DNA of 64,000 nt, taken from sequence record NC_135730.1; one strand, written 5' to 3'. Under the pieces are notes generated by a model that saw only the letters and a list, made by a program, of their open reading frames with translations, was not told where the DNA came from and did no database searches. A program made the translations under genes and the position numbers. The stretch comes from a phage. Below are positions 15,111 to 62,653 of this stretch, piece by piece. The stretch's first letter is position 1. Each line of letters opens with the position of its first letter.

Positions 15111-17500
15111 TCTGCTCTTCCCCCTACCATAAACGGCCCTACCTGGCAAGTGGAATAATTGACGAGCCATCAATCCCACACACTGTACAAATATACATGT
15201 AAAATAGCTATTGCATAACCTTTCATTGTGTGGTAGCAGGGCTATTTTACCCGTTTTCCCTTCCAAAATTGCACGTAATGCCGCTATTGCACAAATTTTA
15301 ACCTGATGCAGATCTTCAATATCTTGTCAACAAATAAAAATTCTTATAAGTCATACACTTACACCAACACAAAAGCGTTTTCTACGTGAAAAATCGAGTA
15401 TAACTATAGCCGCCAGATCTCAGAATTTACGTACGCTCACCATTCTATAGCCTGCTAAGTATTTATTCCAACCATAGAATAATGGAATAGTCAATACCTG
15501 CATAAAATAATTATTCGTTTAAATTGCATAACATAAATCAGCCAGGGTGTCAACATTTTTCGTAAACAGTCCGAAATTATCGCTGTGAATTATCATAAAC
15601 AGAGAAATCTTTAGTCGTCTAATGTTTACTGTACGTTACTATACTGACTGGAATCATTAGATGACTAAGAGAAAGATAAGAAATAATTAACAATACAATT
15701 ATTTTATCTGTAACAATAAGGCAACTATGCAAACGAATGGCATGGCGCGACGGAGTCGCGACATAATATAAAAGCAGTAACCATCACCCCCGTGATAGTT
15801 TGTCTGCAATCTATTAATCAGATCATAGTTGCCTTGTATTTAGTTAATCATGACATAACAAGCAAGGCAACTATAGATCTTCTAATAGTTGCCCTGCTTT
15901 TATATTATGTCATAGAAACACCCGAAGGGGTGACCAAAGGTCACCTGGCATAGCCAGCGAAAGATTATTAACTTGCTAATCGTTATCATGCAAACGAATG
16001 GCATGGCTTATAATTTTTGAGCAAATAGTCTATACGTGAACAGTGAGGCATGCAATAGTAACAATTGTTATTATATCCAGTGTTTAGTATGCCCAGTGTG
16101 TCAAAGGTGTCTAAAGTGTCAGACAAGTTTTTCTCCTCTTTGTCAAGTGCTGCATGAAAAATTTACAATCTGGTATGGTAGCATTTTTGCGGCCCTGTTT
16201 ACATCCAGTTGTGTATGTATAACCCTTGTTGTGTGGGCGTTTAGACGTCTGGACGGTTGGAAGTCTACAGGTCAATATCTAATCTATCGGCTGCTAACTA
16301 TATCCCACACAAATAGTAAGAAATATAATTGTTATATGCGTAAACAGTAACTCATGTTATCAATCCCTGTATGTATCGCCAGTGGTGCGCATAATGGGTA
16401 TTATGTTAAATTGCCCGTAATGATAATGGTTCTCACAATGATATGTATTCTCATTCCCCCACACAAAATAGATTGCAAATGTTGTGCCACTATGTGAACG
16501 GCCTCACCTATTAATTTGCCTCACTGCCTCGATATTTGAGAATTGTTATAAGAATGAGAAGTATTCCCATTTCGTCCGCCTGGCAGCACTCCTGTCGGTC
16601 AGGTCAAAATCGTGGTATAACTGGACCTGTTCAGATATTTCTGGCTGACTCTTCAGGCCTGTGTGGGAAAAGCCGACCCCTCCGGCGGCGGGGAGGGGGT
16701 CAATTAAAAAATTTACGGGGTATATGAAGCGCTCTTCAGGTAAGGCAGGTATTATGGGATGAAACCCTCTTCAGGTAATGATATTTGTGGGTGTGATATT
16801 TGCTGGAAAGCCAGATATGACGGGACTCCCGGCGGGGCAGGGGTAGTACAGACAGGGAAAATATGGAGGATGTGGTTGGGTAAATTGATCAGACAGGTAG
16901 AGTATGGAATATGTTATGAATATGTTAAATATAGAGGTTGAATATCTGTAGGATTTGTGTGTAAAATCAAAGACTTAAGTGGTGTTGTGGTATTTTCTAT
17001 AAATAATTCAAGTTTAATAGGTGATATTTGTCCCTATCTACTTTGTGTGGTAAACAGATTCAGATGAGATTGGTTTACGAGTGTATACATAATATACAAA
17101 TTAAAGATACAAGAAACCCCCCTCCCCCTTCGGCTACCATTCACCTTTTCCTCTGACTGGTACTTAAACACTTATTCAGACTCTTCAGGTTATCACCCAT
17201 ATATCATATGGCAGTGACTGGTGTCCTCCGGCCCCTCTTTCGTCACCCGTCCGCTTCGCCATGCTAATGCCATAGCCAAATGTTCGGTTGTTCACCCTGT
17301 TCACTCAGGTGTATCTCCATACCCCTTCAAACCGAAGAGAACAGAAAACCCGAATTACTCGGTAAAAGAAAAGAGAAGAACTTAATTTTATCAGGATAGG
17401 CAAGAATGTCAAGGCATGACTGCTCACTAAACAAGCAAACAGTCATGTGTGGGAGGTAAGTGATTGTGGTGGTGGGAAATTTAGTTGAAAGATGTGCTAC
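15111..17500. other. 2.4 kb non-coding repeat-rich region at the convergence of the two transcription blocks
   Basis: no credible ORF with RBS; nested inverted repeats 15757-15915, duplicated atgcaaacgaatggcatggc, four ctcttcagg repeats, CCCCTCCCCC motifs. Confidence 0.6.
16672..16705 (-). terminator. candidate minus-strand terminator
   Basis: gacccctcc/ggagggggtc hairpin followed on the minus strand by GGCTTTTCC. Confidence 0.35.
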
Positions 17501-17541
17501 AGGTGCGCTTCCAGCACTTTAGCCGGGCAGCTAATTGTGTG

Positions 17542-17757
17542 TCAGTCCAGCGGTTCATCCTCTACTTCACTGAAATCAATGTTCATGGTCTCTTCCCAAC
17601 CATCGATCTCAGCACAAGAGTGGAGTTCTTTAGGGTTTACTCCCAAAGCCTCAGCAACAGAGTCTATATTTAACACCTCTGGCAGGTATGATTCATCGAA
17701 TTCAAGGTAAATCAGGCCACGAGTGTTGTCAGCTCCACCAAATATTTCTATCTTCAT
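17542..17757 (-). CDS. small acidic protein (family A-like)
   Basis: ATG at 17757 after AGAGGAG RBS; starts MKIEIF; within track ORF 17542-17823. Confidence 0.5.
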   Translation of the reverse strand: MKIEIFGGADNTRGLIYLEFDESYLPEVLNIDSVAEALGVNPKELHSCAEIDGWEETMNIDFSEVEDEPLD

Positions 17758-17877
17758 GAAATCTCCTCTGGAAATGAGAATGTGAACAGGGTTTATATGT
17801 TCCAATGCACTGGAATTATGCACGTTTGCCTCTTCAGGCCATGCTTTAGCATGAGGAACCTGTGTGGGCTCGGTGCT

Positions 17878-18090
17878 TCATAGTCTACCACCTCTGAACT
17901 CTTCGTGCTCAGGCATAATAGAGAACCAGATATCTACGATGTCTTCCCACGTTAGGTCATCAGCCTCAGGATCTACCTGGAGCGAAGATGGAGAATCTTC
18001 AGAATCGAAGTTTTCCTCTTGCACTGGCTCAGTCAAGGGACATATAGTCACTCCTTTGGATGTCTCTTCAGATGCATGTGTGTTTATCAT
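17878..18090 (-). CDS. hypothetical acidic protein
   Basis: ATG at 18090 overlapping the stop of an upstream 29-aa TM peptide (ATGA coupling); within track ORF 17878-18291. Confidence 0.4.
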   Translation of the reverse strand: MINTHASEETSKGVTICPLTEPVQEENFDSEDSPSSLQVDPEADDLTWEDIVDIWFSIMPEHEEFRGGRL

Positions 18091-18176
18091 GTTCCACCCG
18101 TGAGTATTCCGGCAACAGCCACTATGGACGTAATGATCATCAGGATCACCACCAAAACCTCTGACAATGTTTTCAT
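18087..18176 (-). CDS. small hydrophobic peptide (29 aa)
   Basis: MKTLSEVLVVILMIITSIVAVAGILTGGT downstream of a minus-strand TTGACA promoter near 18225-18255. Confidence 0.3.
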   Translation of the reverse strand: MKTLSEVLVVILMIITSIVAVAGILTGGT

Positions 18177-18450
18177 TGTGTATCCCATATTCTCCAAACG
18201 ATGTGTGGATACTATCACTGGAGCGGCAATGTGTCAACAGAAACGCCGCGAGGGTTTGGTTAAAATCCGAGCGTATGGTGATTTGGGTCAAAACGGACGT
18301 GCGTTCTCGCTACGCTCGAAAAAGAGAGTTGTTTGTAGGAAGCTCTTAAACGCTCTGTAAGGAGATTATCTGTCCAAGGTATGCAATCGTGCACCAGATA
18401 AAGAAAAGGACGCCACAGAGCGTCCTAGGTGTCTTAAATTTGATATTTTG

Positions 18451-18750
18451 CTATACCCATGATGGCTTATCAAGGTTGGAGTAGCTGAAAGGTGTCAAAA
18501 GGTGACTGTCAAAATCTCTCAAACTATCCAGATCTTTTTCCTCGTCCTGACACCATCTGTGCCTGCATTTATTGTTGTAGTGCATAGAATGCATGGCGTT
18601 CTGCAACTTAACAGGCACAAGTGATTCCGGAGTAGATAGTATTGTTGGGTATGCTAGAACCACCTCAAACAGTGGAAACACATCGAAACTAAAATCTACC
18701 TCTGCAGAGGTTGATGGCATGTAGGAGTATTTAGCCGTCTTTGTAGACAT
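18451..18750 (-). CDS. hypothetical protein
   Basis: ATG at 18750 after GAGGTGGA RBS. Confidence 0.5.
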   Translation of the reverse strand: MSTKTAKYSYMPSTSAEVDFSFDVFPLFEVVLAYPTILSTPESLVPVKLQNAMHSMHYNNKCRHRWCQDEEKDLDSLRDFDSHLLTPFSYSNLDKPSWV

Positions 18751-18758
18751 AATCCACC

Positions 18759-19085
18759 TCACACAGGTTTGATAATACCTTCACCGAATAACTCTTCATA
18801 TCTAATCTTATCCGGATCCCACTCCTGGATAATTTCGAAGACAATATCCAACCCTGGGATAATCACTTCTCCAGTGTCAAGTTTGGCAAGAACAAAACCA
18901 GAAGGCTGAATGGTTTCCCAGTTGCGACGATTGGAATAGAAGACCTCGAAAATATCACCGACCTTGATCTGTTGATCAAGATGTTCAAGGTTCTCTTTCA
19001 TGTAGACGCAGCGTATTTTTCGTGCAGGCCATAGACCACCTGCATCACGTTCATTCAATTCTTTTACAGTGATCGGTATACCCAT
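18759..19085 (-). CDS. hypothetical protein
   Basis: 108-aa track ORF; GAGGGAG RBS. Confidence 0.6.
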   Translation of the reverse strand: MGIPITVKELNERDAGGLWPARKIRCVYMKENLEHLDQQIKVGDIFEVFYSNRRNWETIQPSGFVLAKLDTGEVIIPGLDIVFEIIQEWDPDKIRYEELFGEGIIKPV

Positions 19086-51296: not shown

Positions 51297-52580
51297 TCAT
51301 TCAAGCACCTCCCAAGTATCTGGGTTAACATTTCGGACGCAGATACCGACAGGGAATTGGTAGTTGTTGTCTTCTGTCCTTGCTTGGTATTTGAAGGTGA
51401 CAAACTTGCCGATCATTTCCTGCATCCTGTCATAGCTACGCTCCTCGTGCGTGCCTTTCATCTTCATTTTAACAACAATACCTTCCTTGTCAACGCAGAT
51501 AAGAACACCTTCATCATTCTTATCTTTCTCAACGTCAATAACTTTCACCTCTGCGTCGTTGAACTTTTTCCATTTCAATGCTTCAGATGTTCGCTGACCG
51601 TACTCGTATTTACCGCAGAAATTACGCATGATAGTACCTTCATATCCTTCGGACATGAATATACCAACAGATTCTTCGCAATGATCAACTGTGTACGCAA
51701 GCTCTGCGTCAACAACCTTGATATGGTCAAGCATCAGAGTGGTAACGGTATCCTCTGCATCCATAAGATCCTTGCAGCGTCCAGACTCTGTTTCTGGATC
51801 CCACCACACCTTGTCGCTAGGAATATCAAAAATGTGATACTCCAGATCGTAGCTACAGTATCCACCGTAACGCAAATCATCACGAACAGGCTCAACATCG
51901 ACAGGAATATCTACCTTGTTGAAGTTTTTGTATGTTGATAAGCCTGCCTTAATTGCTGCATGACGGCGTTTTTTATCTGCCTCATAGTCTTTATCGATCT
52001 CGGCCTGAATCTCTTCCTGTGTGCGCCACCGTTTAGCAAGAGACACTATTTTCTGCAAAGGAAGACCATGAATGTATAGTTCCCCATCAAGTTGTTTAAT
52101 CCCAGTGGTAGAATGGAAAGAACGAAGTTGCTCTAAAAGCTTTCCTTGAATAGGGTAGGACTTATTACCACGGGAAATAAATTTAGGCTCACCATTTTGG
52201 AAAACAACAAGCAGACGAAGGCCATCTAACTTACGCAAGATCCAGCAAGGTAATTTAAGTGCCTTGCCACGCTTCAGGTAGTCATGCACCAGCATAGGTA
52301 AAAGATCAACACCCTGCTCGCAATCTTCCATGTTTTCAACATACCCCAGACGGACTTGTTTTTCCCACTTGCTGATAGCCTCAAGCTCGGCCTGTTGCTC
52401 AGCTGTAGTCTCGTTGGCACGACCTACGTTTTTAGGTGTACATACCGTCTCTTTGTACTGCAATTTACCGTCAAGCTTGCCAAACTCTACGATAACCTTT
52501 TCGCCATCAGTGAATACTTTCCACTGTTGGTAGCTGCCATCTTTGTTCAGTGCGTACAGTGTTGTTTTGATTTGATGCAT
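51297..52580 (-). CDS. ATP-dependent DNA ligase
   Basis: adenylation motif I KLDGLR; 427 aa. Confidence 0.8.
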   Translation of the reverse strand: MHQIKTTLYALNKDGSYQQWKVFTDGEKVIVEFGKLDGKLQYKETVCTPKNVGRANETTAEQQAELEAISKWEKQVRLGYVENMEDCEQGVDLLPMLVHDYLKRGKALKLPCWILRKLDGLRLLVVFQNGEPKFISRGNKSYPIQGKLLEQLRSFHSTTGIKQLDGELYIHGLPLQKIVSLAKRWRTQEEIQAEIDKDYEADKKRRHAAIKAGLSTYKNFNKVDIPVDVEPVRDDLRYGGYCSYDLEYHIFDIPSDKVWWDPETESGRCKDLMDAEDTVTTLMLDHIKVVDAELAYTVDHCEESVGIFMSEGYEGTIMRNFCGKYEYGQRTSEALKWKKFNDAEVKVIDVEKDKNDEGVLICVDKEGIVVKMKMKGTHEERSYDRMQEMIGKFVTFKYQARTEDNNYQFPVGICVRNVNPDTWEVLE

Positions 52581-53144: not shown

Positions 53145-53206
53145 AACTAACTACCTCACTGCATACTTTCCATAATAAGTAAAGCCGGGTAATCCCGGCT
53201 ATGTTG

Positions 53207-53920
53207 TTAAATATACTCTGTTACATCCTTGAAGCTCGAAGGCTTCATGATCTTACCTTTACTGTCAAGGAATATGATAACTTTATTACCGTTGTAGAAT
53301 TCTTCCTTGGCAACAAAACCTTCATATCGACCATCAAAGCGGCGTTCAAGATCTTTAATCTCCAACTCGATTAGTTGTTCAGCAGGCATATCTGCACTGG
53401 CACCGTGTGAATACCGTAGATGGTTGACCCGTGCAAACTTGCTGTCATTCGATTTGAGAACCTTACGCATCATCCCGCACACATCGCCGCGAAGCTGGAA
53501 CAGCAAAGCTGTTGACAACTCTGCTAAGCGGTAAGCAGACGCTCTTTGCTTAGAGGTGTTTTTCGCAGCGATCAGTGTATCATAGAACTCGCCGATCTTG
53601 AACTTAAGACCTCGTGGATTATCAAACAGGTTTGACCACTTTTCGTGATTATCATTAACAAGATAAGCGGCATAACTTGTGACAACGTGAAGATCGCAGG
53701 CCTCTTTTAGCAGGTGATCTCCACCATCACCTTTCTCCAGCTCTTCCAAAACCTCATTGAACTCTTCCTCAATGAAGCTAAGCTGTAATTCGAATGGCGT
53801 GTATGATTTTTTCACTTTAGCTGCCACACGGTTCCAGTTTTCCACCCAATTGGCAGACCAAAGGTAGTTTTCAGGCTGAGACAGTTTTTCCAGGTTGTCG
53901 ATCAGTTTAGTATTCAGCAT
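53207..53920 (-). CDS. hypothetical protein with MazG-like all-alpha NTP pyrophosphatase motif
   Basis: EEEFNEVLEELEKGD...LLKEACDLHVV resembles MazG/HisE EExxE repeats. Confidence 0.35.
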   Translation of the reverse strand: MLNTKLIDNLEKLSQPENYLWSANWVENWNRVAAKVKKSYTPFELQLSFIEEEFNEVLEELEKGDGGDHLLKEACDLHVVTSYAAYLVNDNHEKWSNLFDNPRGLKFKIGEFYDTLIAAKNTSKQRASAYRLAELSTALLFQLRGDVCGMMRKVLKSNDSKFARVNHLRYSHGASADMPAEQLIELEIKDLERRFDGRYEGFVAKEEFYNGNKVIIFLDSKGKIMKPSSFKDVTEYI

Positions 53921-53933
53921 TAAAGGTCTCCTT

Positions 53934-54695
53934 TTAAAGTTCCATAAAGTTTTCTACAGTTTCAATAAATGCTTTATCAGAGAAAGCGTCAACAGCACCG
54001 TTAAACCATACAGGGATCCCGCGATCCTCATATTGATAAAGGTCGCTACGTGAAATGCCACTTCCATCTGCACTCTGCGAATCATACTTGTTTACAATCA
54101 GCAGTTTTGTTCCTTTACAAGTAGCAGGAAACAATTCCCAGTTAAAATTAATAACTGTGTTAGAACAACCCACTAGGATCACCATATCATTGCTGGTGAG
54201 AGATGTCAACAGGTCATACATGTCTGTATACTTAGGAGCAACCTCGCCGAAGAACACTACATTGGGCTTAACCCAGGTATACTTGCCTGTATCTACCTCC
54301 GTGTATCCGATATTTTTAATTACATCATTACCTTCAGCATCTTCGTAGGTGATTTCAGGCAAATACCCGTGGACATGTAAAATATCTTCATGTTTTACAC
54401 CAGCCCGCTCCAGCAAATCATCTACATTGGTGGTAAGGTTGATCACACGACCAGACCAGCGGGAATACCACTCAGCGATCCGAAGATGTGCAAGGTTAGG
54501 ATCAACACTGCCCAGAGCTACACGACGTGCATTGTAAAAGTCATGCACCTTGTAGTAGTTCTTGGCAAAGGTGTGGATGTTGCACACCTCATCGATGCTG
54601 AAATTCTCCCACATTGCAGTGCTACCAGATCGGAAAGTGGGAATACCAGATTCAGCGCTCAAACCAGCACCGGAGATAATAATCAGTCGTCGCAT
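53934..54695 (-). CDS. Sir2-family NAD-dependent deacylase/ADP-ribosyltransferase
   Basis: GAGLSAESGIPTFRS NAD-binding motif, TTNVDDL, HG. Confidence 0.75.
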   Translation of the reverse strand: MRRLIIISGAGLSAESGIPTFRSGSTAMWENFSIDEVCNIHTFAKNYYKVHDFYNARRVALGSVDPNLAHLRIAEWYSRWSGRVINLTTNVDDLLERAGVKHEDILHVHGYLPEITYEDAEGNDVIKNIGYTEVDTGKYTWVKPNVVFFGEVAPKYTDMYDLLTSLTSNDMVILVGCSNTVINFNWELFPATCKGTKLLIVNKYDSQSADGSGISRSDLYQYEDRGIPVWFNGAVDAFSDKAFIETVENFMEL

Positions 54696-54703
54696 AAGTG
54701 TCC

Positions 54704-55054
54704 TCAGTAGATGTTTTGTTTAATCTCTATTCCAAACTTTTTAAACGAGTCAGCTGCAAGCATGAATTTACGAGCCGCTGATGGGTTAGAAGTATGCACG
54801 AAAATCTTCACGTTGTCAACTACAGGGGGCTTACCAAATACAAATTTTTCCTCCAACATAGATAGGCAATCGTACCCTTCGAACAACTCTCCAAGGTCGT
54901 TGTCCATGTGCCACTCAGAAACGCGTCTGTAGAGCTTTCTATTATCGTTAATAAAATCTATAAACTCGGAGGAATTCTTTAGCCAAACAGCGTCTTGGAG
55001 CCCGTAATTTGACGGATCTCTCAAGTCATCCAGCCACACAATCAACTTCTTCAT
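54704..55054 (-). CDS. hypothetical protein (possible flavodoxin-like fold)
   Basis: 116-aa track ORF; IVWLDDLRDP motif. Confidence 0.5.
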   Translation of the reverse strand: MKKLIVWLDDLRDPSNYGLQDAVWLKNSSEFIDFINDNRKLYRRVSEWHMDNDLGELFEGYDCLSMLEEKFVFGKPPVVDNVKIFVHTSNPSAARKFMLAADSFKKFGIEIKQNIY

Positions 55055-55986
55055 TGCATATAGTTCTCGTTGTGGAAATAGTAATCAAGTATCTCACGGC
55101 GTTCCTGCTCCAGGAGGCAGTTCCACACATCTTCTGTGTAATTGTTACGAATGAAGTTTACCATGCCGTAAAACTCTTCGTCAACACGTTTAAAGATATC
55201 ATCATCCCAAATCTTCCAAGCTTTACCCCTCATTACGGCCTTCCGTGCCAGGTAGTATGGAGACTTGATCTTCAGCTGCAGGTCATAAGGGTAGTAAGGC
55301 TTACGGATCATATACCCTTCGCCCATTGTTTCTGCAGCTAATTCTTTTGCATAGCTGAACGGGATTTCACGCACAGTGTGAGGACGTTTTGCACCAAGGT
55401 ATTTGGCAATCCCATCTAAAGCTGCTTCTGGTAGCATTATTCCAGAATCATTATATCTGCAACCTATCAAATATGCGCCATGGTCTTCTTGAACAATATG
55501 CGGATCTGAAGGGTGACAAATTTCAAACATGAATGTCATGTTTTCATTGCCCATAACCTTCTTGATAAGATCTAAATTACCACATTGCTCTTGGATGGTT
55601 TCCTTTGCAAGGTTACAATATGGAGAATCAAGAGACCCGGTTGTTGAGAACAATAGGTCACCTTTATGAGATGATACCACACCAAGGAATCCGTTCTTTT
55701 TCTCTACCGCCGTCACAAGCTTATTGTCAGGCAGGTTGGTGGAGTTTTCTCCCAAGTTAAACACTTTTGTGAAGGGCCATGCCACAACATTCCCTTCATT
55801 ACCTACAACAATGCCTCGGCACTCCAGCAGACGAGGAGACAAATGCCATAAATTGTTGTAAAATACTTTTCTGGCATATTTATAGATCTTTAATCCAAGA
55901 TCTGGGTAATATCTGCTGGTTACAAGACCTTTGTCAACTAGGTCGTCTGCATTAAAATACTTCATCATGCGTTCCTCATTTGTCAT
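55051..55986 (-). CDS. putative RNA ligase (Rnl1/Trl1-type nucleotidyltransferase)
   Basis: motif I KKNG, motif IV EGYMIRK, motif V LKIK; separate from the KLDG DNA ligase. Confidence 0.55.
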   Translation of the reverse strand: MTNEERMMKYFNADDLVDKGLVTSRYYPDLGLKIYKYARKVFYNNLWHLSPRLLECRGIVVGNEGNVVAWPFTKVFNLGENSTNLPDNKLVTAVEKKNGFLGVVSSHKGDLLFSTTGSLDSPYCNLAKETIQEQCGNLDLIKKVMGNENMTFMFEICHPSDPHIVQEDHGAYLIGCRYNDSGIMLPEAALDGIAKYLGAKRPHTVREIPFSYAKELAAETMGEGYMIRKPYYPYDLQLKIKSPYYLARKAVMRGKAWKIWDDDIFKRVDEEFYGMVNFIRNNYTEDVWNCLLEQERREILDYYFHNENYMQ

Positions 55987-56058: not shown

Positions 56059-56087
56059 ATCGTTGAAATTAAAACGGAGGATTACTA

Positions 56088-56497
56088 TGTCTAAAATGCT
56101 ATATATCGTGCGTGGTCTACCAGGGTCTGGCAAATCAACACTGGCAAATGCGCTATCTTTAGACGGTCTGTATCCACATTTTGAGAACGACATGTTCTGG
56201 TACGACGATGATGGAAATTATAACTGGGGTGCAAGTAAAGTAACACTTGCAGCAAAATGGTGCAAAGATAACGTAGAAGATATGATGCGTATGGGATACG
56301 ACCGTATCGTGGTAAGTAATACGTTTACAAAAGAAAAATATGTGCAAGAATATATTGACATGGCGATCAGTCATGGGTATAGTTATACCGTGATCGTGGT
56401 TGAAAACCGCCATGGTAATAAAAGCATTCATGATGTTCCAGACAGGGTTGTGGATCGTATGGAACGCCAGCTTAAAAACTGCATTAAACTTAAATGA
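56088..56497 (+). CDS. polynucleotide 5'-kinase-like P-loop kinase
   Basis: GLPGSGKST resembles T4 Pnk kinase domain GCPGSGKST; ACGGAGGA RBS. Confidence 0.6.
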
Positions 56498-56504
56498 GGA
56501 ATGT

Positions 56505-57059
56505 ATGAAATACTTTGTAACAAGCGACACACACTTTCTCCACCAGCGGGTCATGGAGTTCGATTCATGTCAAAAACACAGATCTCAGTATGATCACAAT
56601 CTTGACAGTATGAATGCGGGAATCATCACCAAGTGGAACTCTGTTGTGTCACCTGCAGACACTGTGTTTCACTTGGGAGATATTGCGTGCACTAATGATA
56701 AGAATATCAACAAATTGCTCCCAGATGTTCTAAATATGTTGAACGGACATATTATTCTTGTTCGTGGTAACCATGACACAAGGACGACTGTCAGAATTAT
56801 GAAAGAGTTCGGTCATGAGGTTGTAGATTATTACGAGCTTCGCCACAACAAGAATTTGATCTGTATGAGCCATTACCAGTTTGCAAAGTGGAACAGAAAG
56901 CCTCACGGATCAGTCCAACTGTTCGGTCATGCTCACGGAACCACACAGCAGTTGTTTGGCAGGCAGTTTGATGTCGGTTGGGATGTGTGGGGGAGACTCT
57001 TACCATTGGAAGAGGCATACCGTATTGCAATGAGTCTTGCTATTGACAGCGGGGAGTAA
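56505..57059 (+). CDS. calcineurin-like metallophosphoesterase
   Basis: ATG at 56505 (MKYFVTSDTHF) within track ORF; GDI, GNHD and HAHG metal-binding motifs. Confidence 0.7.
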   Translation: MKYFVTSDTHFLHQRVMEFDSCQKHRSQYDHNLDSMNAGIITKWNSVVSPADTVFHLGDIACTNDKNINKLLPDVLNMLNGHIILVRGNHDTRTTVRIMKEFGHEVVDYYELRHNKNLICMSHYQFAKWNRKPHGSVQLFGHAHGTTQQLFGRQFDVGWDVWGRLLPLEEAYRIAMSLAIDSGE

Positions 57060-59994: not shown

Positions 59995-60069
59995 GCCCTG
60001 TTAGCTTAGTGGATAAAGCAGCGGCCTTCTAAGCCGTTGACACTGGTTCGAGTCCAGTACGGGGTGCCA
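59995..60069 (+). tRNA. tRNA-Arg (anticodon UCU)
   Basis: manual cloverleaf; anticodon loop CTTCTAA; T-loop GGTTCGAGTCC; CCA present. Confidence 0.7.
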
Positions 60070-60073
60070 AATT

Positions 60074-60160
60074 GGGGAGTTATCCCGTAGAGGTAGCGGT
60101 GTAGACTGTAAATCTATTGTCATTGCGACTCGGGTGGTTCGACTCCACCACTCCCCACCA
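60074..60160 (+). tRNA. tRNA-Tyr (anticodon GUA), type II
   Basis: acceptor GGGGAGT/ACTCCCC; loop CTGTAAA; long variable arm; T-loop TTCGACT. Confidence 0.7.
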
Positions 60161-60274
60161 AATTTATATTTTTAGATGCATAAATAATACAGATAATGGC
60201 ATTGATATTTATCGTCGTTTATACTAGTCACTAACTGCTCGAAAATCAGTGTCATTATCAGTATAATTTATAAA

Positions 60275-60365
60275 GGAGGGTAGGGAGCAATGGTGCTCAA
60301 GCGGTCTTGAAAACCGTCCCGTTGAGGATGACTCGATGATGGTTCGATTCCATTACTCTCCGCCA
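60275..60365 (+). tRNA. tRNA-Ser (anticodon UGA), type II
   Basis: anticodon arm CGGTCTTGAAAACCG matches E. coli tRNA-Ser as recalled; long variable arm. Confidence 0.75.
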
Positions 60366-60463
60366 CATTGTTGACCTTGTAATTAAGCGAAAGCCGGAAG
60401 CAGAACCGGATTATCAAATGTTACAGTCGTCATCGCCGACTAGCAACATGGTCAACATACTGA

Positions 60464-60562
60464 GCTAGGTAAGCCCTTTGGCAAGGGCGAGGATTTTTAA
60501 TCCTGAAAATAGACGAGGTAGTCGTTGAATACATAGGTGGTTCGATTCCATCGCCTAGCACC
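60464..60562 (+). tRNA. atypical type-II-length tRNA-like gene, anticodon ambiguous (UUU or UAA)
   Basis: good acceptor, D and T arms; anticodon stem only 4 bp; about 29-nt variable region. Confidence 0.4.
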
Positions 60563-60567
60563 TTTTT

Positions 60568-60643
60568 GCTGATGTAGCACAATCGGTAGTGCAATTGATT
60601 TGTAATCAATAGGTTGTAGGTTCAAGTCCTGCCATCAGCACCA
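60568..60643 (+). tRNA. tRNA-Thr (anticodon UGU)
   Basis: all four stems pair cleanly; loop TTTGTAA. Confidence 0.8.
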
Positions 60644-60644
60644 A

Positions 60645-60719
60645 GGCCCTGTAGCTGGAAGGTTCAAGCAAGCGACTCATAATCGCCAGACGGTGGTTCA
60701 ATTCCACCCAGGGCCACCA
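60645..60719 (+). tRNA. tRNA with CAU anticodon (Met or lysidine-Ile)
   Basis: acceptor GGCCCTG/CAGGGCC; loop CTCATAA; T-stem GGTGG/CCACC. Confidence 0.7.
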
Positions 60720-60730
60720 AATAGTAAATA

Positions 60731-60807
60731 CTCCGCGTAGCTCAGCTTGGTAGAGCGCCTGATTTGGGATCAGGAGGTCGAGTGTTCGAATCACTCCGTG
60801 GAGACCA
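60731..60807 (+). tRNA. tRNA-Pro (anticodon UGG)
   Basis: C1:G72 first pair typical of bacterial tRNA-Pro; loop TTTGGGA; clean cloverleaf. Confidence 0.8.
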
Positions 60808-61911: not shown

Positions 61912-62336
61912 TGTCTAAGATTTACGGACCGTGTTCTGAAAAGCAGAAGATGATCCTCGAAAACGATGCAGATATTTTGGTAATCGGCGGTGCCGCAGGG
62001 TCTGGCAAGTCGTTCCTCTTGCAGTTGATGCCGCTTAAAATTATTGATGACCCCCACAGCTCTGTGGTTATGTTCCGAAGAACAACCCCACAGTTGGAAG
62101 GTGAGGGTGGGCTATGGCCTAAAGCAGTAGCTATTTATAGTGATCTGCCTGAAAACATTAAGCCAAAGTTCAGAGAGAAGGATCATAAGTTCATTTTCCC
62201 ACGGTTTGATCCGAGCACTGGCAAGTGGGATAGAAGCAAAAAGGGAGCTGTTGTAAAATACTGCCACATGGAGTATGTCCAAGATAAGCTTAACCATCAA
62301 GGTCTTGAGTACACCATGGTTTGCTTCGATGAGGGT
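61911..62336 (+). CDS. terminase large subunit, exon 1 (ATPase domain)
   Basis: Walker A GGAAGSGKS, Walker B MVCFDE; ends at intron 5' splice site. Confidence 0.8.
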
Positions 62337-62653
62337 TAATTTGTAGCTCTCGTAAAACCTCCCTAATTGCGGGGAAATCTTTACTATTAATACCACCAAC
62401 CTGTCATGGTAACATGATAGAGGCTTCGAAGAGAGATCGAAGGTATGGTAACAGTGTGTTAATTTAGATAATCCGCAGCGAAGCATCCGAGAGGATGAAC
62501 GTTCAACGACTAGTCGAAAGACGTAGAATCAAGCGATTCGAAACGGGAGGGTAAGCGGTTGTTGTCGCTTATAAGATATAGTCTGGTCTGCATGGAGACA
62601 TGCAGCTGCCTGAAAAATGGCGGGGCAAGACTAGCGACCTTGCCCGAACATAG
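62337..62653 (+). mobile_element. ORF-less group I intron in terminase large subunit gene (3' boundary +/- 3 nt)
   Basis: all four core elements in order: P AAUUGCGGGGAAA (about 62364), Q AAUCCGCAGC (about 62470), R GUUCAACGACUAG (about 62501), S AAGAUAUAGUCU (about 62573). Confidence 0.75.

Follow-up and report, generated by a model that had tools for sequence, protein, structure and literature searches.

The DNA considered here is a window of 64,000 nucleotides from a phage (sequence record NC_135730.1), and the subject is the group of genes in and around positions 53207–55054, at the centre of which lies a gene for a Sir2-family protein (sirtuin). Quite possibly, with a confidence that falls slightly short of even, the region is a phage island for the repair of RNA breaks, particularly in transfer RNA (tRNA), of the kind used against host anticodon nucleases, in which the Sir2 protein would remove 2′-phosphates in a reaction dependent on nicotinamide adenine dinucleotide (NAD+). 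The region is read as an RNA end-repair island because the Sir2 gene and its two immediate neighbours are flanked by genes for an RNA ligase of the Rnl1 family, a P-loop kinase and a metallophosphoesterase, and by tRNA genes. All of these lie just outside 53207–55054, the span of a preliminary description made from the letters of the DNA alone, which left out this decisive context.

The observation itself is not new, as both the island and the prediction of its role have been in print since 2022 for rV5-like phages of Escherichia coli. Iyer, Burroughs, Anantharaman and Aravind (2022, Viruses 14:1977, PMC9503650) described a sirtuin-centred RNA-repair neighbourhood (type 2), with Escherichia phage V5 and Proteus phage Mydo as prototypes, consisting of a sirtuin, a T4-like tRNA ligase, cREC, a nucleotide kinase, a pyrophosphatase of the MazG superfamily and a calcineurin-like phosphoesterase. 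They predicted that the sirtuin removes 2′-phosphates from RNA, as KptA/Tpt1 does, and also covered jumbo-phage and HAD variants. The gene set of the window is identical to that of the type 2 neighbourhood and nothing essential differs; the published role is a prediction. What is added here is that cREC lies within 2 kb of Sir2 in four clusters of Sir2 sequences, that in T5-like phages Sir2 has a HAD_SAK RNA-repair phosphatase beside it, that Sir2 is often near NAD-salvage genes, that the gene for the MazG-like protein tracks that for DNA ligase, and that this protein appears, in a structural model, to have a fold of the dimeric-dUTPase type.

The window has 96–97.5% DNA identity to Escherichia phages JES2013, rV5 and their relatives, and by sequence the phage is a Vequintavirus. 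According to the list of open reading frames (ORFs), positions 53207–55054 are filled exactly by three minus-strand ORFs of 237, 253 and 116 amino acids, which correspond to a MazG-like protein, Sir2 and cREC (in rV5: gp081, gp080 and gp079). The gaps between them are 13 nucleotides (MazG-like/Sir2) and 8 nucleotides (Sir2/cREC), and the stop codon of the Rnl1 gene overlaps the start codon of the cREC gene by 4 nucleotides (ATGA). This 1848-nucleotide stretch has 90–99% identity in 119 of the 120 matching phage records and is covered to at least 80% in 117 of the 120. Because the stretch is conserved across phage records and the matches to Pfam and PHROG families are strong, the three ORFs are genuine genes rather than chance ones. 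The order of the four-gene unit on the minus strand is thus Rnl1, cREC, Sir2, MazG-like, and it stands back-to-back with the genes for the kinase and the metallophosphoesterase.

The Sir2 protein, cREC and the MazG-like protein

The Sir2 protein (253 amino acids; 53934–54695, minus strand) matches the Pfam family SIR2 (PF02146) with E=6.9e-28 and 98.2 bits against a cutoff of 24, over profile positions 1–178 of 180. Its identity had been recognised in the preliminary description from two motifs, both of which are present (GAGLSAESGIPTFRS, residues 9–23, and HVHG, residues 107–110). The best sequence matches in the PDB are E. coli CobB (1s5p, 3e-21) and human SIRT5. Across 12 diverse homologues from phages, the most distant of which has 42% identity, residues G9, A10, G11, F21, R22, N90, H109, G110, F149 and E151 are invariant, D92/D93 and G176 are invariant or nearly so, and V91 is conserved; the TQN motif has Thr in place of Gln (TTN). 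The catalytic His, whose absence the preliminary description had named as speaking against its proposal, is thus in place (H109) and aligns with the HMHG motif of CobB. The YxxR pair of class III sirtuins has been kept as well: Y54 is invariant, R57 is found in at least 90% of sequences, and FYNARR aligns with FYNARR of CobB. The set of four zinc-binding cysteines between HG and FGE is missing from all 12 aligned phage proteins, which have an invariant G130-Y131 there instead. Loss of the zinc cysteines was seen previously in sirtuins of Vibrio phages (PMC5107563).

Compared with CobB and SIRT5, the phage protein has the GAG, FR, N-V-D, HxHG and FGE motifs and the YxxR pair in common, but differs from them in the lost cysteines, in TTN for TQN and in its low equivalog scores: the best NCBIfam matches are CobB-type models, at 104 bits against a cutoff of 320 (NF040867) and 122.6 against 243 (NF001753), far below the level required. 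With the defence Sir2 NADases (ThsA, DSR1/2, SIR2-HerA, SPARSA) it shares the Sir2 Rossmann domain and the use of NAD+; unlike them it is phage-encoded and CobB-like, it is a single-domain protein whose neighbours are RNA-repair genes, it has no SLOG, HerA or Argonaute partner, and no family among the PADLOC defence models matches it at E≤0.01. Because the NAD and catalytic motifs are kept, CobB and SIRT5 are nearest and the PADLOC comparison was negative, the protein looks catalytically competent and CobB-derived, and unlike a defence NADase. Thus, the earlier framing of the gene by NAD-depleting bacterial defence finds no support, as its nearest relatives are class III deacylases. No homology to the PTS_2-RNA fold of Tpt1/KptA was found in the protein, SIR2 being the sole Pfam family matched, and any likeness to Tpt1/KptA would be convergent in function. 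A tblastn search found the clade in 1011 phage records, from Vequintavirinae, Phapecoctavirus, Justusliebigvirus, T5-like Demerecviridae, KVP40-like Vibrio phages and jumbo phages.

The 116-amino-acid protein (54704–55054, minus strand) had been described as unassigned, which is not the case: it matches Pfam PF20274 (cREC_REC, cyclic-phosphate processing receiver domain) with E=3.1e-15 and 57.1 bits against a cutoff of 27, and nearly all of its 55 database homologues carry the same family. The motif IVWLDDLRDP (residues 5–14) is strand 1 with the receiver DD pair. Structure prediction, suggested in the preliminary description as a check, gave an AlphaFold model from 21 homologues with a mean confidence (pLDDT, predicted local distance difference test) of 92.6, which has a receiver (CheY-like) fold with an acidic pocket made up of the DD pair that follows strand 1 and an Asp that follows strand 3. 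Residues D51, D53, H87 and N90 are invariant, and D9, D10, R12 and P14 nearly so, in 14–21 homologues. Since these Asp, His and Asn residues are conserved, the acidic pocket of receivers appears to have been kept in cREC, with the addition of a family-specific His-x-x-Asn. A profile search of the PDB gave spurious matches to an acyl-carrier-protein motif only, and no solved relative by sequence. The family was defined in a 2021 paper on jumbo phages by the group of Iyer et al. (PMC7824862) and is described as experimentally uncharacterised (PMC9503650). It has no histidine-kinase partner and is associated instead with RNA ligases or with ADP-ribose-processing genes. By its sequence, cREC is predicted to be a cyclic-phosphate-processing receiver domain and may be a phosphoesterase. 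A scan of viral contigs with the single cREC sequence found one near-identical locus, and an alignment-based scan was required for wider finds.

The 237-amino-acid protein (53207–53920, minus strand) contains FIEEEFNEVLEELE, an EExxE-type acidic motif, and matches PHROG 671, “nucleotide pyrophosphohydrolase”, at 5e-22. No Pfam family exceeds its cutoff (PRA-PH gives 13.7 bits against 21.3), and nine aligned members of the protein family give weak matches to PRA-PH in all nine cases (best 2.7e-6) and to MazG in six. In the family alignment, E52, E53, E56, D76, an SNDSK motif and a C-terminal KGKIMKPS are invariant. The AlphaFold model (pLDDT 74.6) is a helical bundle with a C-terminal hairpin, and its four-helix core has the E-x-x-E ... 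E-x-x-D set of metal ligands; the spacing of E52/E53, E56, E73 and D76 is the one typical of MazG-type pyrophosphatases. Because a sequence search of the PDB gave nothing and a profile search gave one marginal match, to HisE (E=0.72), the assignment rests on comparison of folds. The earlier label of MazG-like is right at the level of the superfamily, from the weak PRA-PH and MazG matches together with the fold. In the model, the protein is an all-α nucleoside triphosphate (NTP) pyrophosphohydrolase of the MazG/HisE superfamily with the architecture of a dimeric dUTPase and a C-terminal β-hairpin. It shares only 8–15% identity with dimeric dUTPases (staphylococcal phage Dut, C. jejuni, L. major) and with MazG/HisE, and adds to them the conserved β-hairpin (KGKIMKPS). 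As for its role, clean-up of an ADP-ribose by-product and sanitation of deoxynucleoside triphosphates (dNTPs), in the manner of a dUTPase and tied to DNA ligase, are about equally likely.

The repair genes, their linkage and the proposed pathway

The first gene of the minus-strand unit (55051–55986) encodes an ATP-dependent RNA ligase of the Rnl1 family (T4 RnlA-like, 311 amino acids; homologous to rV5 gp078), which matches Pfam RNA_lig_T4_1 over the full profile (E=1.6e-14) and PHROG 562 at 6e-66; the nucleotidyl-transferase motifs KKNG, EGYM and LKIKS can be read in its translation. Divergent from it, across a region of 100 nucleotides, is the gene for a P-loop kinase resembling polynucleotide 5′-kinases (136 amino acids; 56087–56497, plus strand; homologous to rV5 gp077), with GLPGSGKST and matches to Pfam AAA_33 (9e-10) and Zeta_toxin (2.6e-5), to PHROG 2071, and to PHROG 505, “polynucleotide kinase” (1e-9). 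The gene for a calcineurin-like metallophosphoesterase follows (184 amino acids; 56505–57059, plus strand), with matches to Pfam Metallophos (5e-6) and Metallophos_2 (3.6e-6) and to PHROG 547 (5e-51), and with readable DTH, GD, GNHD and GHAHG motifs; it is a candidate for an enzyme that heals 2′,3′-phosphate or cyclic-phosphate ends. A cluster of phage tRNA genes (called by ARAGORN as Arg, Tyr, Ser, Thr, Met, Pro and one odd tRNA-like gene, with tRNA matches in Rfam as well; 59995–60807, plus strand) starts 3 kb beyond this pair, and the tRNAs are likely clients of the repair module. Near the module, an Rfam scan gave no RNA of the Y-RNA-like kind and none otherwise associated with repair.

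The linkage of these genes was surveyed in 30 loci with locally built hidden Markov models. In Vequintavirus, the phosphoesterase and kinase genes point away from a row of Rnl1, cREC, Sir2 and MazG-like genes, with the DNA ligase gene somewhat beyond. Loci of the Seunavirus/Mydovirus type (Sir2 55–59% identical) have the phosphoesterase gene and, after an interval, Rnl1, cREC, kinase, Sir2 and DNA ligase, followed at a distance by the MazG-like gene, all on one strand; the kinase gene thus stands between cREC and Sir2 there. The phi92-like phages have cREC, phosphoesterase, Rnl1 and kinase, then DNA ligase and MazG-like, and the phAPEC8-like phages only cREC, phosphoesterase, DNA ligase and MazG-like; in both, Sir2 is elsewhere in the genome. 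The phosphoesterase gene is linked to those for Rnl1, kinase and cREC in all loci of the Vequintavirinae and phi92 types, and the genes for RNA ligase, 5′-kinase and phosphoesterase are co-located and colinear in at least 14 related loci.

Beyond these lineages Sir2 has other partners. In a Yersinia jumbo phage (Sir2 43% identical), a fusion of a Nudt16-like Nudix domain with cREC comes directly after Sir2 and an Acb1-family 2H phosphoesterase before it, with NadM and Nampt 3–5 kb upstream; in a second jumbo-phage cluster, the Nudix, cREC and 2H genes stand unfused beside Sir2. The gene for a HAD_SAK_2 phosphatase (“Swiss-army-knife RNA repair”) is at most three genes (~1 kb) from Sir2 in T5 and in Erwinia phage KEY. 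Among 80 Sir2-centred loci from IMG/VR, 29 have HAD_SAK, ~14 the Vequintavirinae-type set, six the jumbo-phage set and 25 none of the tracked genes. When Sir2 sequences are grouped into 24 clusters, RNA-end-processing genes occur within 7 kb in ten, NAD-salvage genes in nine and neither in ten; cREC lies no more than 2 kb from Sir2 in four separate clusters. In 7 of 11 lineages cREC lies within or close to a tRNA array; it lies within one in a Morganella T4-like phage and in several contigs of Proteus phages. It also occurs in Proteus phage Privateer without a link to Sir2, adjoining an RtcB ligase and an SPFH protein.

The linkage survey gave some observations of separate interest. In Privateer (L010, 2488–6339), genes for RtcB, a 415-amino-acid protein, an SPFH/band-7 protein and cREC stand in a row ~4.8 kb downstream of tRNA genes; as judged from the sequences, this is an RNA-repair cassette of the RtcB type that includes cREC. 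In loci of the Phapecoctavirus type (phAPEC8, L009; also L019 and L024), cREC, metallophosphoesterase, DNA ligase and MazG-like genes are together, a few kb from a tRNA array; RNA ligase and kinase are absent from the locus, which would be left unexplained if cREC served RNA ligation only. In T5, two tandem DUF7415 proteins (T5.106 and T5.107; L003, 7651–8481) follow the Sir2/HAD_SAK pair, and DUF7415 is found downstream of Sir2 in 31 surveyed loci. No Pfam family could be assigned to the genes beside Sir2 in Vibrio phage nt-1 or in Escherichia phage ukendt. A link between Sir2 and DNA ligase was also considered, as the two genes overlap in PVP-SE1 and a paper on mycobacteria connects Sir2 with non-homologous end joining, and was set aside: the link is absent in loci of the rV5, T5 and jumbo-phage types.

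What the genes encode, their operon-like packing, their conservation and the occurrence of cREC beside ligases of two unrelated families make it very probable that the ligase, kinase, phosphoesterase and cREC constitute a module for healing and sealing the ends of RNA or tRNA. Three things are observed: what the genes are, that the catalytic residues are intact and that the linkage is conserved. From these a pathway can be inferred, both in its substrates and in the order of its steps; it is the one put forward by Iyer et al. (PMC9503650) for this neighbourhood. A metal-independent RNase of the host would leave 2′,3′-cyclic-phosphate and 5′-OH ends. The kinase would phosphorylate the 5′-OH, and cREC (with its receiver fold and Asp/His site), the metallophosphoesterase or both would open the cyclic phosphate, after which Rnl1 would seal the break. 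The sirtuin, using NAD+, would then strip off the leftover 2′-phosphate in a reaction like that of Tpt1/KptA, and cREC, possibly together with the pyrophosphatase, would degrade the by-product of the sirtuin reaction.

There are two known systems with which this scheme can be compared. In fungi and plants, Trl1 (cyclic phosphodiesterase, kinase and ligase) is followed by Tpt1/KptA and then by Cpd1 (2H) and Poa1 (Macro), which clean up. The proposed logic is the same, i.e., opening of the cyclic phosphate to a 2′-phosphate, 5′ phosphorylation, Rnl1-type sealing, removal of the 2′-phosphate with NAD+, and hydrolysis of ADP-ribose cyclic phosphate. The window differs in that none of its proteins has a Pfam match to Tpt1, 2H or Macro, and the sirtuin and cREC would be non-homologous substitutes. 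In phage T4, the polynucleotide kinase-phosphatase PseT and RnlA (Rnl1) repair tRNA-Lys that has been cut by PrrC. Both T4 and the window phage pair an Rnl1-family ligase with a P-loop 5′-kinase and a 3′/2′-end phosphatase in a lytic myovirus of E. coli; however, kinase and phosphatase are separate proteins in the window, the phosphatase belongs, like that of Clostridium thermocellum Pnkp, to the calcineurin-like rather than the HAD type, and T4 has no sirtuin or cREC partner.

In the reaction of sirtuins, an oxygen of the substrate attacks C1″ of NAD+, and the 2″-OH of the ribose attacks thereafter. Tpt1 is described similarly in a published account (PMC11417386): attack of a substrate oxygen on C1″ of NAD+ and then of the ribose 2″-OH, giving a 1″,2″-cyclic species. 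Because of this parallel in chemistry, and because of the recurrent adjacency of Sir2 to cREC, HAD_SAK and 2H in distant phages, the Sir2 protein may work in an RNA-repair pathway, a proposal for which the prospects are even. That it is specifically a Tpt1-like 2′-phosphotransferase is a more doubtful suggestion. Tentatively, and at the same lower level of confidence, the zinc-less clade of phage sirtuins as a whole could act on RNA rather than on protein, as NAD+-dependent RNA 2′-phosphotransferases or related modifiers or demodifiers of RNA ends in partnership with cREC, while in many lineages salvage genes of the phage would restore the supply of NAD+. Such a link to NAD salvage does not apply to the window phage, since a tblastn search of the window for Nampt and NadM was negative, as it was for PRPP synthetase, HAD_SAK, 2H and Nudix-cREC.

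Alternative explanations

Several points weigh against a role of the Sir2 protein in RNA repair. The protein retains the YxxR pair, the FGE loop and the acyl-lysine tunnel residues, so that an ordinary deacylase is equally compatible with the sequence. In ten of the 24 Sir2 clusters, no tracked gene for repair or NAD salvage lies within 7 kb, and the phi92-like and phAPEC8-like phages keep the repair genes together with Sir2 elsewhere. The kinase, metallophosphoesterase and Rnl1 are a complete heal-and-seal set of the T4 type, and therefore no 2′-phosphate would be left for Sir2 to remove. The MazG-like gene follows DNA ligase, not Sir2. A common location among early genes could inflate the linkage, for which the counts given are raw ones. 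A search of the literature found no experimental data for phage sirtuins, cREC or any other member of the island.

One alternative explanation concerns the MazG-like gene alone and is compatible with any reading of Sir2. It is an evenly balanced matter whether this gene belongs outside the Sir2 unit altogether, as a dimeric-dUTPase-like dNTP house-cleaner among the genes for DNA ligase and nucleotide metabolism, its adjacency to Sir2 being a rearrangement specific to Vequintavirus. In every lineage surveyed the gene is 0–3 genes from that for DNA ligase, even where the locus has no Sir2, and it adjoins Sir2 in Vequintavirus only; the acidic set E52/E53, E56, E73 and D76 has MazG-type spacing; and the rV5 annotation, considered from 59.7 to 126 kb, has ThyX and Nrd genes but no dUTPase. 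On the other hand, the protein is nearer to PRA-PH and MazG by sequence, with the Pfam dimeric dUTPase family not among the matches, the Nudix gene in the corresponding place in jumbo phages suggests a need for a pyrophosphatase beside Sir2 and cREC, and a MazG enzyme is listed in the sirtuin neighbourhood by Iyer et al. (PMC9503650). The preliminary description had suggested that Sir2 and its neighbours may form a functional unit; this is plausible for Sir2 and its neighbours, but the MazG-like protein is the weakest member, as its gene stays by DNA ligase rather than by Sir2 in related phages.

Less probable, although by no means far-fetched, is that the Sir2 protein is a phage CobB-type NAD+-dependent protein lysine deacylase, whether for acetyl or succinyl groups, that re-tunes host or phage proteins, for example by activating acetyl-CoA synthetase, and that its position among repair genes reflects a common early or accessory region. 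Skliros et al. (2016, PMC5107563) came to the same conclusion for a member from a Vibrio phage, having modelled the sirtuin and reported its transcription in mid-infection, and proposed deacetylation of host proteins such as acetyl-CoA synthetase. Conservation of the catalytic His, the FGE loop, F21, V91 and the Y54-x-x-R57 pair for the acyl carboxylate is consistent with this, as are the nearness in sequence to E. coli CobB, human SIRT5 and the CobB-type NCBIfam models and the loci in which Sir2 is unlinked from repair genes. The equivalog scores, however, are all far under their cutoffs, and the phage clade as a whole lacks the four cysteines of the zinc module that gives the peptide-binding cleft its shape. 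Moreover, deacylation gives no reason for the recurrence of Sir2 beside three unrelated families concerned with RNA ends or ADP-ribose phosphates (cREC, HAD_SAK and 2H) in phage lineages that are otherwise dissimilar. A search of the literature found no experimental test of either the RNA 2′-phosphate or the deacetylase proposal for phage sirtuins.

Sir2, cREC and the pyrophosphatase might instead act without RNA repair, as an NAD+/ADP-ribose counter-defence unit that would break down or divert NAD-derived immune signals, NAD or ADP-ribose caps, or toxic ADP-ribose phosphates, a refinement of what the preliminary description had suggested. Nampt and/or NadM lie within ~7 kb of the sirtuin gene in nine of the 24 clusters, four of which have no RNA-repair gene nearby (NAD-salvage-linked loci: L007, 792–7671; L014; L074–L076; L092, L096, L097, L100 and L102). 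The jumbo-phage Sir2 stands between the Acb1-family 2H protein and the Nudix-cREC fusion, and Sir2 has a pyrophosphatase beside it in this phage (MazG-like) as well as in jumbo phages (Nudix), which looks like non-homologous replacement; in the view of Iyer et al. (PMC9503650), cREC and Nudix process derivatives of ADP-ribose. Nevertheless, this explanation is improbable, for the known Thoeris-, CBASS- and CRISPR-type signals do not have the nicotinamide-ribosyl bond on which sirtuins act, a sirtuin uses up NAD+ that the phage needs, the window phage has no NAD-salvage gene by tblastn, and the tightest partners of Sir2 in this phage are the RNA ligase, the kinase and the phosphoesterase.

Other features of the window and wider significance

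Beyond the MazG-like gene there is a palindromic hairpin (AGCCGGG-ATTA-CCCGGCT; 53183–53200; stem of 7 bp, six of them G-C), which was found by a terminator-like scan match on both strands and by direct reading. It begins 7 nucleotides past the stop of the gene and has a weak T-tract, and is a candidate terminator that would close a transcription unit of Rnl1, cREC, Sir2 and MazG-like genes. A scan for promoters gave no excess over the shuffled expectation and no convincing minus-strand promoter upstream of Rnl1. Two small genes beyond the MazG-like gene and the hairpin is the gene for an ATP-dependent DNA ligase (427 amino acids; 51297–52580, minus strand; Pfam DNA_ligase_A_M and DNA_ligase_OB_2). 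This ligase is 56% identical to that of rV5 and 92.5% identical to one on an IMG/VR contig, and cREC is 84.5% identical to rV5 gp079 where the flanking Sir2, MazG-like and Rnl1 proteins are 98–100% identical; such mosaic identities point to replacement of alleles by recombination. In the tRNA cluster, ARAGORN calls a 99-nucleotide tRNA-like sequence with the four-base anticodon atcc (60464–60562, plus strand) and a 91-nucleotide tRNA-Ser (60275–60365, plus strand), both of which are under the Rfam gathering score for tRNA that the other five tRNAs reach; the odd 99-nucleotide call is also found in rV5 and in one IMG/VR relative.

Elsewhere in the window, a group I catalytic intron was found at 62327–62605 (plus strand; Rfam RF00028, full-length model, 84 bits against a cutoff of 50), in the region in which the rV5 annotation joins a terminase large subunit from three pieces. 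The first 29.7 kb (1–29700) contain a single ORF of at least 200 amino acids. The guanine-cytosine (GC) skew changes sign near 17–18 kb, and GC content falls to 0.389 at 14–16 kb. Positions ~16100–18800 correspond to rV5 104013–106618, i.e., 2.6 kb with no annotated gene and a strand switch, and may be an origin or a regulatory region. Among database records, 18 unannotated GenBank entries labelled as C. jejuni phages (MG0656xx, “Campylobacter phage” A140, D1, C14 and others) have ~97% identity to rV5-like phages of E. coli over 53207–55054, and their host labels look doubtful.

The genes of the island are routinely annotated, and its present value is as a set of testable enzymes; confirmation of the RNA-repair role would be new biochemistry rather than a new observation. 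If the role is as proposed, sirtuins would gain a new class of substrate, RNA 2′-phosphates, and the phage protein would be the first sirtuin directed at nucleic acid and would replace Tpt1 without being homologous to it, while the receiver fold would gain a catalytic role unrelated to signalling. Large lytic phages of enterobacteria would then carry a second, NAD+-dependent route for the repair of tRNAs cut by host defence nucleases, which would bear on the escape of some therapeutic phages (rV5-like and T5-like) from tRNA-targeting immunity.

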